A stretch of 64,000 nt of DNA, taken from Candidatus Bathyarchaeota archaeon (lineage in GTDB: Archaea > Thermoproteota > Bathyarchaeia > Bathyarchaeales > Bathycorpusculaceae). Under the pieces are notes generated by a model. The model had not been told where the DNA came from. It made no database searches and saw only the letters and a list, made by a program, of their open reading frames with translations. The stretch is taken from positions 1,952,001 through 2,016,000 of the forward strand of contig OY969706.1 of the NCBI GenBank assembly GCA_963702095.1, written 5' to 3'. Positions within the stretch are counted from its first letter, which is position 1; each line of letters opens with the position of its first letter. Positions 9,283 to 15,422 of the stretch are shown here, one piece after another. Both the position numbers and the translations under genes were made by a program.

Positions 9283-9340
9283 TTGTGCTGTTTCACTCTC
9301 TCTTCTCAACTCAAATTGTCGGGGTAATATAAAAACCCGT

Positions 9341-9348
9341 CTTACCCA
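9341..9348 (+). repeat. left 8-bp target-site duplication CTTACCCA
   Basis: Identical to 15415-15422; both abut the TIRs directly. Confidence 0.92.
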
Positions 9349-9450
9349 GGTTCTGTTAACTTCATGGGCGATGATTCTCTGTGTTAAGAATCGGGTGATA
9401 AATCCTCTCTTTTTTGTGGGCTGGATTTGGGCTGTTAATTTTCGGGTGAT
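9349..9450 (+). repeat. left TIR (9349-9372) and subterminal repeats (9382-9399, 9433-9450)
   Basis: GGTTCTGTTAACTTCATGGGCGAT; TGTTAAGAATCGGGTGAT; TGTTAATTTTCGGGTGAT. Confidence 0.9.
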
Positions 9451-9663
9451 GACCGAACCGAGCATTTGAGTTCTGAAGTATCGGGTTGGGCTTCTGATTT
9501 CTGGGGCATCGGGCTAACATTGAGAGTTCTGAACGGGGCTGGCTGTTACTTGAATCGGCTAAATATAACAGCTAAAAACTAAATACCGATTGCACTCGCT
9601 AAATTGCAAAAAAAGTTACAATTAGCCTTAAATACTAACAATATCAGATAACCAACATCAGAA

Positions 9664-9936
9664 GTGTTTAGTATGGAGATAAAACTATTCGAGTTATTTA
9701 GAACCGACACTTTGCGCCATCGCGAAACAGCTAGAATAGTCGTTAATCTCTTAGAAGAAAAAAAAGAAACGCAAAATGTAATAGATTTTGACCAGATTGT
9801 ATTTGCCTCTCGTTCTTTTCTTCACGAATTATTGTGCGATATCGGCAATAAAAAAGTAGTCTTCCATAACACAAACGAGGAGATTAGACAAATGATGGAA
9901 ATAGCGAAAAAGGGAGTACATCCCTTACTAGCCTAA
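9664..9936 (+). CDS. STAS-like (DUF4325-type) protein
   Basis: VIDFDQIVFASRSFLHELL motif; about 90 aa. Confidence 0.75.
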   Translation: MFSMEIKLFELFRTDTLRHRETARIVVNLLEEKKETQNVIDFDQIVFASRSFLHELLCDIGNKKVVFHNTNEEIRQMMEIAKKGVHPLLA

Positions 9937-10751
9937 CTAACGAATTTATAAATTTCAATATCCTTGGGCGTAAAGTTTAGGGCAACTAAGGAACCATCCC
10001 ATCCAGATTTTAGCTTCAATATCTTCGTTTCATCAGCTTTATGATAAACTAACGCCTTTCCAGACATTATTATCATTTTACCGCCAAACCCATTTACGCA
10101 TAGTTTAGAAATACTTTGTATACCGTTGCCTCTGCCTTTCCAGTCTTTTTTAGAAGACTTGCCCTTAAAGGCATTAATTATTGCCTCATCATCTGTTTTT
10201 GCTTCGTATTCCGTGCCCTTATATGATTTTTTATAACCAATCCCGCAATCGGCAATAACAATCTCGCAAGTTTTTACTTTTGGTTTTTTATAATATTGAG
10301 CAAGAAGCCAATAATTATCAATATGAGCATGTTCATTTACGTTGTTGATTATTTCACTCGTAAAATACTTTAGCGCTGTTTTTTCTACGTTCATTTCCTT
10401 GATAATCCTATTTTCATACTCGCTGAGCATTTCACTGTCGGCTTCTTTGGCAACCATTTTAGTTATTGGTAAGTATTTTTTTGCTTTAGAAAAATCAGCA
10501 ACACCCTCTTGGAACCCAATAGTCTCAAGATAACGGCAAACATCTTCATCTTCTTCCAAACAATTGATTGTTAACTCATTATTGTTGGCATAGACAGCTA
10601 AGGGTAAAATTGAAAGAGGCGTAACAAACTTAACCTGTATTAAGTCAATTGACTTTTTACCACTGTTTATTGCTTTTTCCATTTCTGCAATATTTTTTAT
10701 TAGCTCATCGATTCGTTCTGATATCCCAAAAGGGTTAGCTATTACCTGCAT
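9933..10751 (-). CDS. STAS-like + HATPase_c (anti-sigma-kinase-like) protein
   Basis: IDLIQVKFVTPLS; SEIINNVNEHA N-box; IADCGIG; GRGNGI. Confidence 0.8.
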   Translation of the reverse strand: MQVIANPFGISERIDELIKNIAEMEKAINSGKKSIDLIQVKFVTPLSILPLAVYANNNELTINCLEEDEDVCRYLETIGFQEGVADFSKAKKYLPITKMVAKEADSEMLSEYENRIIKEMNVEKTALKYFTSEIINNVNEHAHIDNYWLLAQYYKKPKVKTCEIVIADCGIGYKKSYKGTEYEAKTDDEAIINAFKGKSSKKDWKGRGNGIQSISKLCVNGFGGKMIIMSGKALVYHKADETKILKLKSGWDGSLVALNFTPKDIEIYKFVS

Positions 10752-10816
10752 TTAGCCATACCTCGGTAGCCCTCAATGAGGGGAAAGTTGTATTTAAAAT
10801 TGTGTATCTAATGGCG

Positions 10817-11947
10817 CTAAGTATCAATTACCTGCTTGCTTGCGTTTTCTATGATAGTTCGCCATTTATCCTGTCCCTGAATCATAATGCCGCAAGCCTC
10901 GGCGGGTGTTTTGCCGTTTAAAGCCTCATGGGGTCTAACGTAATTGTGGTAAAGTTGATAGCCCTTAAGAATCTGAGTATCGGTCTTCTTTAATCCCCGC
11001 ATGACCTTTTCTCTATCTCGGATTTCTCCGTTCATGCGCTCCATTTTGTTGTTGTGAATATCCCCTCTAAGTTTGATGTGTTTAACATGCTCTGTTCTTG
11101 GTCCTTTTAGTGTCCAGAACTCTTTTTTGTAAGCATCATGATAAGACGCTAACCCATCAGTGACAAACACTGTGGGTTTTTTGCCCATAAGTTCCTTAGA
11201 CATTCTAAGTAGGTTGCGTGCATCATGCTTGTATTTTGTATCTGCGACTTCTTGGGCTATCCAGAAGCGGGTTTCATCGTCCATCATAGCAAACAAGTAT
11301 TTCATATCGCCGTTAATTTTTACCCAAACCTCATCAGCCCGCCACTTATCACCCACATTCGGCTTTATCTTTTCAAGATATTGGGTCATAAGTGTGGTGT
11401 ACTTGTTTATCCATTTTAGGATTGAGACATGGCTGATTATTACGCCTTGGAGTTTTAGGAATTTCTGGACATTGCGTAGGCTTTCTCCTGTGAAGTAGAG
11501 TTGCATGGCAGAGGTAATAACTTGTGGGCTTGCCTTCATCCCGTTAAAACCGACATTGACGCTAAAGCGTTTACCACATGCCTTGCAGAGGTAACGTTGT
11601 AGGTCATACTTTTTGTTGTGACGTATGGCATCCTTAACGATATTTTCTGAACCACAAAAAACACAGCTAGCCATATTTAGGGGTTGGATAACAATATTGC
11701 GTTTGACCTGTTCCTTCATTTTAAGGCTGACTTCAACGGCAACCATGTGTTTGCATTTTACATGACGGAATTGATGGTCTGGGCATTCACAGTTCCATTT
11801 ACCATCTACCATAAAAACCGCATATTCACCGTTTCCGCTTTGAGATTTCACGGTGTAAAAGTTCTCTTCTATACAATTTACTTGACTCTCTTTTGCTTGG
11901 GCGATTTCTAAGCCCCGACTTTCTCTTAAACTGCTAATAGCGTTCAA
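10817..11947 (-). CDS. IS6/IS240-type DDE transposase with SWIM and Zn-ribbon domains
   Basis: CECPDH..CKH (SWIM); CVFCGS..QRYLCKACGKRF; WRADE, VTDG, NNKMER (DDE); YHNYVRPHEALNGKTPAEA. Confidence 0.92.
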   Translation of the reverse strand: MNAISSLRESRGLEIAQAKESQVNCIEENFYTVKSQSGNGEYAVFMVDGKWNCECPDHQFRHVKCKHMVAVEVSLKMKEQVKRNIVIQPLNMASCVFCGSENIVKDAIRHNKKYDLQRYLCKACGKRFSVNVGFNGMKASPQVITSAMQLYFTGESLRNVQKFLKLQGVIISHVSILKWINKYTTLMTQYLEKIKPNVGDKWRADEVWVKINGDMKYLFAMMDDETRFWIAQEVADTKYKHDARNLLRMSKELMGKKPTVFVTDGLASYHDAYKKEFWTLKGPRTEHVKHIKLRGDIHNNKMERMNGEIRDREKVMRGLKKTDTQILKGYQLYHNYVRPHEALNGKTPAEACGIMIQGQDKWRTIIENASKQVIDT

Positions 11948-12000
11948 CCGCTAACACCTTGCAGTATATTACTAATAGGTATAGCATATATATGCTTTAC

Positions 12001-12055
12001 GCTATTATACAAGCGCTATAATAGCAATCGTTATATACAATTGCTATTATACAAG
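12001..12055. promoter_or_regulatory. operator/promoter between the divergent transposase and cargo operon
   Basis: GCTATTATACAAG direct repeat (12001, 12043); 12-bp inverted repeat TATAATAGCAAT (12017-12028)/ATTGCTATTATA (12040-12051) around TTATATA. Confidence 0.75.
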
Positions 12056-12068
12056 TAACCGATGCCTT

Positions 12069-12239
12069 ATGGGCAAAGTACAGATTGAAGCATGGAAATG
12101 TGAGAGATGCGCACATGTATGGTTGCCGAGAAACACCTTTCAAGAGCCAAAAGTTTGTCCAAAATGTAAAAGCCCTTACTGGAATGTACCAAAGCGCAAT
12201 CAAAACATCTCAAAAGAGAAAAAAGGGATTGAAAAATAA
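12069..12239 (+). CDS. 56-aa Zn-finger microprotein, absent from ORF track
   Basis: Hand translation MGKVQIEAWKCERCAHVWLPRNTFQEPKVCPKCKSPYWNVPKRNQNISKEKKGIEK*; TAATG coupling to the next gene. Confidence 0.85.
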   Translation: MGKVQIEAWKCERCAHVWLPRNTFQEPKVCPKCKSPYWNVPKRNQNISKEKKGIEK

Positions 12240-14807
12240 TGTCAGAAAGTCTTTCTCAAGGATTACCTTTTTTGGAACTTAATCAGCAAGGCTTAAAACT
12301 TTACAAAGCAAACGATATACCCTTTACTAATCTCAAAGAAGCAGGATTTAATTGCCAAAAAAGCGCTAAAAAGCCTGACCAGTTTGTAGCGCAAGGCAAA
12401 AATATCTTAATTGGAATTGAGGATAAGGCATCATCAAGCGAAATTGATATTGCATCCAACCAATTAAAAACAAATTATTTAGATGCTCTTCCAGATACAA
12501 AATACTTCATAGCGAGAGCTGGTGAAAGAACTAAAGTATACTATCGAATTGCCTCTAACAAAATTATTGAAATCGGCACAACATCAAAAGGTAAGGAAGT
12601 TATTTGTTTCGCTGCAAAAATAATAACAGGTGAAAACAAAGAAATCCAAAAAAACCTACTTTATTTACCGAGCAAGTTCTTGCTGGGAAAGAGCCTATTA
12701 ACGGTTCAATCGAAATTCAACCCCCAAAAGAGTATTACAACCCTCTAATCGTCAAACAAAATACCATCTATAACCTATGGCAAAAAATATTCGTTTGCAC
12801 AGGCGAGAATGCACATAAATGCCTAGAAACCTTTGTAGAACTCCTATTATTCAAGGGAATATCAGATGCAAAGCTATTACCAAAAGATTTTTCGATAGAA
12901 ACTTTAGCAGACCCTAGTAAAAGCAACTCTCTTGAAACATACAAAAACACAGTTAGAAATTACATAAAAACCAACATATTCCCCACGATATCCAATCAAC
13001 CAGGTGTCATCAATGGTTTCGCATTTCAGGATGAAGAAACAGTTTTTAAGACTGTACTAAAGGACTTAATAGGTCTGGGAAATATAGCTCAGAAACAAAT
13101 CGACCCTGATTTTAAACGCAGAATAATTGAAGCTTTCTTAGGCTCAGCACATAGAGAAGGAACCATAAAAAATGGAAAACATCTAACACCAAGAGCAATT
13201 ATTCAAGCAATCTGGGAGATGGCAGACCCTCAAGAAGGAAAGCGTATCTGTGACCCCGCTTGTGGAGTAGGTGGCTTCGTTCTTAGAAGGTCTCAATTAT
13301 CCTTACGAATTTGACCCCATCAAATACAACTGCTTAGGGATAGATAGGGACGAACAAATGATAATCACGTCGAAAGCTAACATGATACTTCACATACTCG
13401 ACAAATTTCTTGATACAAGCATTGGAAAAAATGCTTTATCTGCAAAGATTAACTCGACATTCTATCAAGCTAAAAATAACGGAACAGGAACTCTGGGCGA
13501 ACTTGTAGAAGTTGCAGACAAAACGGCACAATTCCAACCTAAGCATCAAGCAGACTATGTTTTTTCCAATGTCCCCTTTTACATAAACGGAGTCACGCAA
13601 ATCGATGATAGCCTACGAGATTTAGGGTTCGCAAGTTTCTATAATGGGTGTGGTTTAGGAGTCGAAAGCCGATTTATTAAATATGTTTTGGGTCAGATAA
13701 AGAATGGCGACCCTGGACTTAGCTTTTGTAATTGTAACTGACGGCATATTATATCGGCACAAAGATAAGGCAAGAGAAACAATAAAGGAAAATGCGGATG
13801 TACTCGGTATAATCTCATTACCAGAAGGCGTTTTTCAAAACAACAACTGGAAAACCTCAATTCTAATCCTAAAAAAGAAAGGAGTACAACCTGAGTATTC
13901 ACCCGTATTTCTTTATAATGTTGACAACATTGGAATTTCCCTTGATTCTTACAGGACTCCTACTGAAGAAAATGATATACCTAACATGAAGAGAGCATGG
14001 CAACAGCGTTTTTCGGGAAAAACAAATGATGACCCAAAATGTAAATTGGTTCCAAGAGAGGATTTTATTAACGCTGATAAGTGGTCAGACCTGTTTGCAG
14101 ACTGGAGAAAAGCCGATACATCCAATAACATATCAATTTCGGAGTTTATTGAAAATGCAAGCAGTGTAAACGCTGATATCGGAAAAATGCTTAATGACGC
14201 AGATAAAAAACTTGGAGAAATCTTTGCTATGGATAGATACGCCGAGTTACAACTAAGTAACAAAATTTATTTCCAAGTTCAAACTTCGCCATTTAAAACG
14301 ACTGTAAAAACTGCTCGGCTTAACCCTGGAAGATATCCGTTATTCTCTTCTCAAGTTAATGGTCCAATCGAGTTTATGGAAGACAAGAAAACGCCACCTA
14401 TCTTAATTGGTAATGAAACAAATGGAGAAAATAAGAGACTTATCAGTTGGAATATAAAAGGTGACCCTTGTAAAGATATTAGGGTACACGAAGAACCGTT
14501 TTATGCCACCGAAAATAGAGGACTAATATCTGTAGTAAACGACAAGATTGATTTTCACTATTTGCTTTATTACTTGAGAGAGCATTTGGTTACATCAGGG
14601 AAGTTTAAGCGTTCTAATGAAGCCCATGCTGGTAAAGTAAAGAATATCAAGATTAAAGTTCCGATTGATGATAAGGGCAAAATCGATTTGTCGAAACAAA
14701 GAGAAATAGCTAAGAACTATGAAAAAATAGTGGATTTACGCAAGAAAATGACTGAGAGAATAACAGAGATGCAGACACTATTAAGTGAAATCGATATTTT
14801 CAAGTAA
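12239..14807 (+). pseudogene. type IIG-like restriction-modification fusion (PD-ExK nuclease, N6-adenine MTase, specificity domain) with three frameshifts (near 12667, 13283, 13719)
   Basis: KPDQFV..IEDK; hand-read middle frame LWQKIF..CLETFVELLLFKGISD..HLTPR..ICDPACGVGGF; SNVPF; IISLPEGVF; HsdS-like IKVP..LSKQREIA. Confidence 0.8.
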
Positions 14808-14924
14808 CGGTTTCTTGGTTTCAATTTTATTTTCCTATCTATCACTTTAGAGATATGTTAAGCGAAAAATAGGCAAACCTTATTTGCTTTCAGTTTTAAT
14901 AATATTTGATTTGGTGGTGTCATT

Positions 14925-15311
14925 TTGCCTAAATGCCCATCTTGTGGAACTAATACAGAGAGGGTTTTAAAGGAATGGGATTACTCATCATTCCATGTAA
15001 AGAATATGGAGTGCCCTAACTGTCTAAAAACCTTTAAAGTATACTTCAAAGAAGGCAAGCTTAGCCACATAATTGAGACCAACGAGGCAAATGCTAAAAA
15101 AAGAATAAAAGATTTTTTGGAAAAAACTGGGGGGGCAACAACATTAGAGATAGCTGATATTCTGGAACTTGATGTAATGGATGTTATACGGTTGCTTGGT
15201 GACCTTGAAGACGGTTTCGTTATTGAAAGAATCTCTCAACCAAAAGAGAAAGAGCATATGTTCCGTAAAACAAATAATAAACCAATTGAAAGCGCAATTG
15301 TTGATAATTAA
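14925..15311 (+). CDS. Cren7-like Zn ribbon fused to winged HTH
   Basis: CPSCG..KEWDY..FHVK..ECPNCLKTF; GGATTLEIADILEL..VIRLLGDLE. Confidence 0.7.
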   Translation: MPKCPSCGTNTERVLKEWDYSSFHVKNMECPNCLKTFKVYFKEGKLSHIIETNEANAKKRIKDFLEKTGGATTLEIADILELDVMDVIRLLGDLEDGFVIERISQPKEKEHMFRKTNNKPIESAIVDN

Positions 15312-15322
15312 CCCATCCTATT

Positions 15323-15414
15323 ATCACCCGACTGTTAACATGGACAATTTCCGCACCTAAACAATCACCCGAAACTTAACAAGAAGAAGTATCGCCCACG
15401 AAGTTAACAGAACC
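15323..15414 (-). repeat. right TIR (15391-15414) and subterminal repeats (15364-15381, 15323-15340)
   Basis: Reverse complement GGTTCTGTTAACTTCGTGGGCGAT; TGTTAAGTTTCGGGTGAT; TGTTAACAGTCGGGTGAT. Confidence 0.9.
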
Positions 15415-15422
15415 CTTACCCA
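15415..15422 (+). repeat. right 8-bp target-site duplication CTTACCCA
   Basis: Identical to 9341-9348. Confidence 0.92.

Follow-up and report, generated by a model that had tools for sequence, protein, structure and literature searches.

The window analyzed here, a stretch of 64,000 nucleotides of a Candidatus Bathyarchaeota archaeon genome (contig OY969706.1, positions 1,952,001–2,016,000), contains a transposon of 6,066 bp at positions 9349–15414, the tips of which read GGTTCTG. Its terminal inverted repeat spans 51 nt with 84% identity, and extension scoring of the inverted repeats gave a match of 23/24 for the outermost 24 nt (9349–9372 versus 15391–15414). The element is flanked by an 8-bp target-site duplication, CTTACCCA, located at 9341–9348 on the left side and at 15415–15422 on the right side. 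The exact empty site was found in another genome of this genus (G007), in which both flanks are joined by one CTTACCCA. Since the flanks are contiguous there with a single copy, the borders of the element and the 8-bp duplication are certain. A TATA-like sequence, TTTTTATATTA, lies at 9328–9338 on the minus strand, only a few bases off the insertion point; as judged by eye, the insertion is just upstream of this likely promoter of the neighboring minus-strand gene (8614 to ~9260). The 283-aa ORF listed for this gene begins within site 3 of the left end (see below), which is probably an artifact of the insertion.

A single transposase gene is located at 10817–11947 on the minus strand (376 aa), so that the left end is downstream and the right end upstream of it. 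The remaining ORFs lie on both sides of the gene (9664–10751 and 12239–15311), inside the repeats, and the element is thus a passenger-carrying unit transposon. On the left side, a 90-aa ORF on the plus strand (9664–9936) is paired with a 272-aa ORF on the minus strand (9933–10751), and neither has a family match; motifs resembling those of Bergerat ATPases can be seen by eye in the latter. The two ORFs occur together, as a module, in three different elements (those of the window, L018, and L026), and the L018 homolog of the 90-aa ORF gave a weak match to the STAS-like DUF4325. On the right side, 12239–14807 (plus strand) holds remnants of an N6-methyltransferase/specificity fusion gene. Its ORFs at 13271–13741 and 13704–14807 matched N6_Mtase in Pfam and MTase_I and Specificity_I in PADLOC, and they are colinear with residues 393–503 and 506–863, respectively, of an intact 890-aa gene in L018 with 22–25% identity. 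The split fusion gene is probably a decayed gene of the restriction–modification type. Upstream of it, a 169-aa ORF (12239–12748) gave only a match with an E value of 0.14, and its relation to the fusion gene is uncertain. A 128-aa ORF whose translation contains CxxC pairs (14925–15311, plus strand) adjoins the site array of the right end, and homologs of it were found in four others of the 46 elements described below (L016, L018, L025, and L040), the one in L040 with a weak MarR-like match. Profile searches with the ORFs of the window element gave no match to an ATPase family and none to a resolvase or integrase family.

The transposase consists of a SWIM finger (Cys53, Cys55, Cys65, and His67), a zinc ribbon (Cys95, Cys98, Cys121, and Cys124), a helix-turn-helix (HTH) region, and an IS6-type DDE core (Asp205, Asp264, Glu303, and Arg310). 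The residues of the SWIM finger, the zinc ribbon, and the core are invariant among 36 aligned sequences. In Pfam, the protein matched DDE_Tnp_IS240 with 58.3 bits (cut-off, 27) and SWIM with 23 bits, and the zinc ribbon corresponds to a match of 30 bits to the zinc domain of IS1/IS1595. The best profile was that of IS6: the NCBIfam model NF033587 just passed with 125.2 bits (cut-off, 125) over profile positions 1–201 of 202, and the scores of the IS481, IS3, and IS66 models were far under their cut-offs. There were 5,574 homologs at E ≤ 1e-5; those that have a name at NCBI are called "IS6 family transposase" or "DDE-type integrase/transposase/recombinase". The structure model was of moderate confidence (mean pLDDT of 69.2), showing separate modules with low-confidence linkers between them. 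A fold search with this model retrieved chains of IstA, TnsB, and ISCth4 at E values of ~1e-5 to 1e-4, indicating an integrase-like catalytic core. These hits are generic integrase and transposase cores, and neither a close solved relative nor an IS6-family chain was among the matches listed. A homodimer prediction scored 0.40 (mark, 0.42) and was given no weight for or against a dimer. The element belongs to an archaeal branch of the IS6/IS26 family, with a transposase to which an N-terminal SWIM finger and a zinc ribbon have been added.

Each end of the element has one terminal two-box site and two inner copies in the same orientation. The terminal site consists of TGTTAA (box A), a 4-nt spacer, and RTGGGCGAT (box B) and stands beside the tip GGTTC. 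The inner copies consist of TGTTAA, a 3-nt spacer, and TCGGGTGAT, and they are without the tip. At the left end (plus strand), tip and terminal site occupy 9349–9372 with ATGGGCGAT as box B, and the site itself, as read from the sequence, is TGTTAACTTCATGGGCGAT at 9354–9372. It is followed by inner site 2 at 9382–9399 (TGTTAAGAATCGGGTGAT), which matches the consensus exactly, and by inner site 3 at 9433–9450 (TGTTAATTTTCGGGTGAT). The right end mirrors this arrangement on the minus strand: the terminal site and tip occupy 15391–15414 with GTGGGCGAT as box B, the site itself reads TGTTAACTTCGTGGGCGAT as an inverted copy at 15391–15409, site 2 is another exact match at 15364–15381 (TGTTAAGTTTCGGGTGAT), and site 3 is at 15323–15340 (TGTTAACAGTCGGGTGAT). 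Measured from start to start, successive sites are 28 and 51 bp apart at the left end and 28 and 41 bp apart at the right end. In most of the relatives, site 2 stands 33–35 from the tip. A preliminary description of the window had placed three repeats at each end at these positions and spacings, which is borne out by our reading of the sequence. It had also given the consensus TGTTAA-N3 with a separate sequence for the terminal copy, and so had seen in part how that copy departs: N3 holds for the inner ones, but in the terminal copy the spacer is of 4 nt and the second box is degenerate (the window's terminal box B matches its inner box B at only 6/9 positions). A tentative, degenerate fourth site was noticed on the plus strand at 9472–9489 (TCTGAAGTATCGGGTTGG), 39 bp after site 3; it was flagged by self-similarity, and ~10/15 of its box positions match as counted by eye, the calling threshold being 12.

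The pattern TGTTAA-N3-TCGGGTGAT, with 15 specified bases, has four matches without mismatches in the window, all of them within the two ends, and shuffled sequences gave a mean of only 1.58 matches at ≤3 mismatches. In the whole genome (2,937,366 bases), the same four are the only exact matches, one more was found at one mismatch, and the reversed pattern gave no match. Coding constraint was rejected as a source of the site conservation because the arrays of the window are noncoding and the two ends have the same sites in inverted orientation to each other.

A scan of one genome per species identified 79 related loci, nearly all of them in assemblies of Bathyarchaeia and Nitrososphaerota. Elements were delimited by GGTTCTG-type tips (≤1 mismatch), a repeat identity of ≥14/24, and an 8-bp duplication. 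This was achieved for 45 of the 79 loci, which gives 46 elements with that of the window; the other 34 were left out because of short contigs, truncated copies, or ends that were not found. The 46 elements are a selected set because the tips and the duplication were required for delimiting them. They are 2,153–12,099 bp long and contain passenger ORFs, and each duplication pair listed consists of two identical copies. The 46 have no gene in common but the transposase, the transposases of the site-bearing relatives being ~52–82% identical, and the cargo differs among relatives that share ends of one type. Several features of individual loci were also recorded. Some (L016, L044, L056, L023, L032, and L058) come from bins with bacterial labels (Limnocylindrales, Saccharibacteria, Williamwhitmania, and "bacterium"); on loci with an archaeal-type transposase, such labels may reflect mis-binning or transfer. 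L024 has two transposase genes in opposite orientation, and in L026 the GGTTCTG tip recurs at position 82 of the upstream end, 81 bp inside, in a nested or tandem arrangement. In many of the 2–3-kb elements (e.g., L036, at 2240–2523; L021, L053, L020, and L039), an ORF of ~80–120 aa at the upstream end runs outward through the terminal sites and past the tip, with its stop codon in the flank, and overlaps an ORF of 130–200 aa that has no family assignment.

In all 46 elements, the terminal site of either end begins at position 6 and is accompanied by one or more inner copies in the same orientation. The inner repeats are therefore present in the related elements as well; their absence from these, which the preliminary description had named as a refutation of its reading, is not what was found. 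The ends span 51–102 bp and contain two to four two-box sites each. As a control, the terminal site with its spacer cut by one base was compared with the windows 25–66 nt inward, using mock ends taken from the same loci. An inner window matching the element's own terminal site at ≥11/15 positions was found in 77 of 92 real ends versus 24 of 2,236 mock ends. Matches of ≥12/15 to the element's own inner sites numbered 119 in 10,120 end positions, 92 of these being the seeds themselves, versus 35 in 1,697,434 positions elsewhere, which is ~570 times denser. The 4-nt spacer was the unique best fit for the terminal site at 84 of 92 ends, and the mean match of the terminal box B was 7.32/9 with this spacer and ≤3.55 with others. 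Within a lineage, boxes A and B are nearly invariant and the three spacer bases vary freely. Boxes that are kept around a free spacer are the signature of a two-part protein-binding site.

Three sites are present at both ends in 11 of the 46 elements, and a fourth site occurs at +41 on one end each of L016 and L056. In a tree of the 40 full-length transposases, from which six fragmentary genes (L064, L065, L079, L082, L086, and L089) were left out, the three-site ends fall into one clade of eight that includes the window (support, 90), corresponding to one change. On this tree, two sites are ancestral and the third site is a gain of one clade. A third site as a general feature was rejected, as the 35 two-site elements are at the background rate: matches of ≥10/15 in the 80 nt inside site 2 were found at 9 of 5,600 positions, and in the element interiors at 355 of 242,122.

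The spacings between the sites fall into discrete classes. Sites 1 and 2 are separated by 27–29 bp at 64 ends, 37–39 bp at 22 ends, and 46–49 bp at six ends (n = 92). The distance between sites 2 and 3 is 30 bp at three ends, 40–42 bp at 16 ends, and 51–52 bp at three ends (n = 22), and that between sites 3 and 4 is 41 bp (two ends). No spacing was found between the classes, though the search window was continuous. The spacings thus step by about 10 bp (28/38/48 and 30/41/51). On the tree, the class has changed at least six plus three times for sites 1–2 (upstream plus downstream ends) and at least one plus four times for sites 2–3. Because the classes are discrete and have changed many times, insertions and deletions of about one helical turn have been tolerated repeatedly and others not. 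Such one-turn classes are expected if the proteins on neighboring sites must face each other. The preliminary description had interpreted the window's unequal spacings as asymmetric ends suited to long cargo, and neither part fared well among the relatives. Six of the 11 three-site elements are symmetric (41/41, within 1 bp), and the ends of the other five differ by ≥10 bp in either direction; by this comparison, the difference between 41 and 51 bp in the window is one helical step and not a conserved asymmetry. The association with long cargo is weak, as there are two-site elements of up to 12,099 bp and three-site ones of as little as 2,506 bp; the medians of the two groups are 5,343 and 3,211 bp (Mann–Whitney p = 0.04, uncorrected for relatedness). 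Cargo is also present in the SWIM-less relatives described below, which have one terminal repeat per end.

The sequence of box B differs among lineages, with variants that include TCGGGTGAT, TCGTGGGAT, TCGTTTGGT, TCGTCTGTT, TCGTCACCT, and TCGGTTGAT, and in each of the 46 elements the two ends, as well as the terminal and inner copies, always share one variant. Among 40 elements, the distance between box B sequences tracks the zinc-ribbon segment of the transposase best (ρ = 0.49; partial given DDE, 0.47), and the distance between box A sequences tracks the HTH segment best (ρ = 0.28; partial, 0.27); the elements are related, and these Mantel tests, as well as the counts of ends, overstate independence. 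Since relatedness inflates the Mantel tests, the comparison of segment with segment is their informative part. A natural exchange is seen in L015. In the tree, its transposase pairs with that of the window as its sister (support, 97), and the two share 84–92% identity over the HTH and DDE segments. The box B of L015 is TCGTGGGAT, as in L084 and L056, and its zinc-ribbon segment shows 58% identity to that of the window and 67–71% to those of L084 and L056; this contrast is a single event. The window's genome (G000) has further ends of the family at 1163941 (minus strand) and 1237029 (minus strand), with other types of box B (TCGTCTAG; GTCACC/GTTACC-like). The former belongs to a paralog of 55% identity (L002), of which the upstream end only, with two sites having box B TCGTCTAG, was found; no partner end turned up.

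A sister group without the SWIM finger has ends of another kind. The four members analyzed are at 1193229–1197102 in the window's genome (L003/L101), 7535–12367 in L131, 2359–6720 in L132, and 654–3112 in L133; they are 2.5–4.8 kb long and cargo-carrying, and their transposases have ~294–314 residues as estimated from the open-frame lengths. Their eight ends have GATACTG tips, a single perfect terminal repeat of 22–27 bp, and direct repeats of 8–9 bp. No inner copies were found in these eight ends, where the best matches were 9–11/15 despite the many spacer combinations tried. This association of the SWIM finger with inner sites is based on one split between two sister groups.

Here, we propose as the likely explanation that the ends of the window element are arrays of transposase-binding sites, on which a helically phased complex of several protomers is built. 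As the sites are multiple and are conserved in the manner of binding sites, several protomers per end is their natural reading. The N-terminal modules of the element's own transposase would bind every copy, the HTH probably reading box A and the zinc ribbon probably reading box B. The GGTTC tip adjoins the terminal copy alone, which would hence be the cleavable one, and the protomers on the inner sites could not cut because these sites are without the tip. The inner protomers would be held in a fixed helical phase to the terminal protomer, forming a synaptic complex with 2 + 2 sites in the ancestral design and 3 + 3 in the clade of the window. This complex may license the terminal protomers to cleave and then to join the ends to the target with an 8-bp stagger. 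The SWIM finger may serve either contacts between protomers or the binding of DNA. The binding, the stoichiometry, and the licensing role are what we infer from comparing sequences.

The inner sites might instead be bound by the transposase and act mainly as brakes or regulators, by titrating protomers, by blocking unproductive single-end reactions, or by an immunity-like or copy-number control, and not as a scaffold for assembly. The inner copies have no GGTTC tip and so cannot be substrates, the number of sites ranges from two to four per end with no obvious loss of mobility (the duplications are intact in all elements), and the relatives without the SWIM finger are mobile with one terminal repeat per end, all of which suits such a role. 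However, the strict phasing through at least 14 inferred spacing changes fits contact between protomers better than titration, and all 46 elements have a second site at each end, so that we regard a mainly regulatory role as unlikely, though worth keeping in mind. It is considerably less probable that some other protein than the transposase binds the inner repeats, either an accessory protein encoded by the element or a chromatin or architectural factor of the host. The 128-aa CxxC ORF adjoins the right array, and its homologs in L016 and L040 have the same location; in 12 elements, a small ORF of the AbrB/MazE-like kind is found upstream of the gene for the transposase. Neither protein is universal, however, and the 128-aa protein was rejected as the binder because it is present in just 5 of the 46 elements and is missing from L014, L015, L056, and L084, which have three sites. 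Moreover, both boxes of the terminal site recur in the inner sites, the zinc ribbon of the transposase and box B vary together, and a host factor would leave the lineage-specific box B among the elements of one genome unexplained. That the repeats are nonfunctional relics of duplicated or nested earlier insertions, or chance similarities, is scarcely credible: nested ends do exist (L026), and stray sites with foreign types of box B are present in L025 and L026, but the four exact 15-base matches in 2.94 Mb are all inside the two ends, the sites are kept across transposases of ~52–82% identity with boxes retained while spacers drift, the spacing is quantized, and the tip is never found on inner copies.

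The proposed assembly of several transposase protomers on each end has counterparts outside the IS6 family. Mu, Tn7 and the CAST elements, Tn552, Tn402/Tn5053, and IS21 have several directly repeated transposase sites per end, of which generally the outermost alone adjoins the cleavage point. The element of the window resembles this group in its site arrays (three per end here and two to four in the relatives), as far as sequence can tell, and in its integrase-like catalytic core. The transposases of these systems generally pair with an AAA+ regulator (MuB, TnsC, TniB, or IstB), and the duplications are mostly of 5 bp. In contrast, no AAA+ partner family was found in the ORFs of the window element, the 46 elements share the transposase alone, the best profile is that of IS6 and not one of a transposase like MuA, TnsB, or IstA, and the target duplication has 8 bp. 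A single transposase without an ATPase partner acts on two sites per end, and thus on four per element, in the IR/DR group of Tc1/mariner (such as Sleeping Beauty) and in piggyBac and piggyBat. The inner sites of these elements are without the cleavage tip, and the asymmetric inner repeats of piggyBac are read by a zinc-binding domain. These eukaryotic transposons are unrelated in sequence to the present elements and differ in their target duplications; in Sleeping Beauty, the inner sites lie ~165 bp from the outer ones, versus 28 bp here. Members of the IS6/IS26 family transpose through cointegrates (copy-in), which are resolved by host recombination.

As to the IS6/IS26 family itself (IS26, IS257/IS431, and ISS1), the likeness extends from the DDE transposase, with its matches to DDE_Tnp_IS240 and NF033587, to the ends. 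The tips GGTTCTGTT equal the first nine bases of the family consensus GGTTCTGTTGCAAA given by Harmer and Hall in 2019, in the available text of which archaeal members are 696–778 bp long (PMC6807381). At both ends, GGTTCTGTTAAC fits the GG start, the G at position 7, and the cTGTt motif described in the accessible portions of the two family reviews (PMC6807381, PMC7986276). The duplication is also of 8 bp, CTTACCCA being present twice in the window and once in G007; in the relatives, the 8 bp are a selection criterion. The differences are that a simple terminal repeat on a compact single-gene IS is replaced here by two to four sites per end on elements of 2.2–12.1 kb with passengers, and that these archaeal transposases have an N-terminal SWIM finger and zinc ribbon. 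Terminal repeats of the family are 14–20 bp long, or 15–20 bp according to Varani et al. (2021), and the word "subterminal" occurs in the accessible portions of neither review (PMC6807381, PMC7986276). The preliminary description was thus right in regarding multi-site arrays as foreign to classical IS6, for which the same portions of these reviews give one short terminal repeat (PMC6807381, PMC7986276). In the available text of Pong et al. (2021), Tnp26 recognizes 14-bp repeats (PMC8477213). Zinc-finger extensions in IS6 are reported in the available part of Varani et al. (2021) for Clostridial clades only: clades h and i have a CxxC zinc-finger extension before the HTH and DDE regions in proteins of 340–450 aa (PMC7986276). 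As compared by description, these share an N-terminal extension with the transposase of the window; they differ in being bacterial and in having a repeat consensus that is given to 18 bp only (PMC6807381), and inner sites or cargo are not reported for them in the portions available. In the ISfinder set, as presented in the same part of that review, ISDsp3 is the one passenger-carrying IS6 member (PMC7986276). The available text of Krupovic et al. (2019), a survey of thaumarchaeal mobile elements, counts passenger-carrying DNA transposons among the classes undetected in archaea (PMC6563490). No prior description of multi-site IS6-type ends was found in the literature, with most subscription journals and ISfinder lying outside the scope of the search. 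By this comparison of ends and transposases, what is new is an IS6-type element with multi-site, phased ends, in archaeal cargo transposons.

IS6/IS26 elements are among the most important mobilizers of resistance genes, and the one-turn spacing variants and the natural swap of zinc ribbon and box B between the window and L015 provide material on how IS6 ends are recognized and paired. The elements are also unit transposons with varied cargo, including methyltransferase/specificity fusions, in uncultured archaea of soil and sediment. A broader and more tentative reading, rather less likely than not, is that the SWIM-bearing IS6-like transposons of Bathyarchaeia and Nitrososphaerota form a distinct, undescribed group of true archaeal cargo unit transposons, in which the HTH would act on box A and an exchangeable zinc ribbon on box B, the ends would be brought into a helically phased complex of four to eight protomers without an ATPase partner, and a swap of the zinc ribbon would re-program the end specificity. 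If this is true, such swaps would make it possible for several lineages to share a genome with no cross-mobilization.
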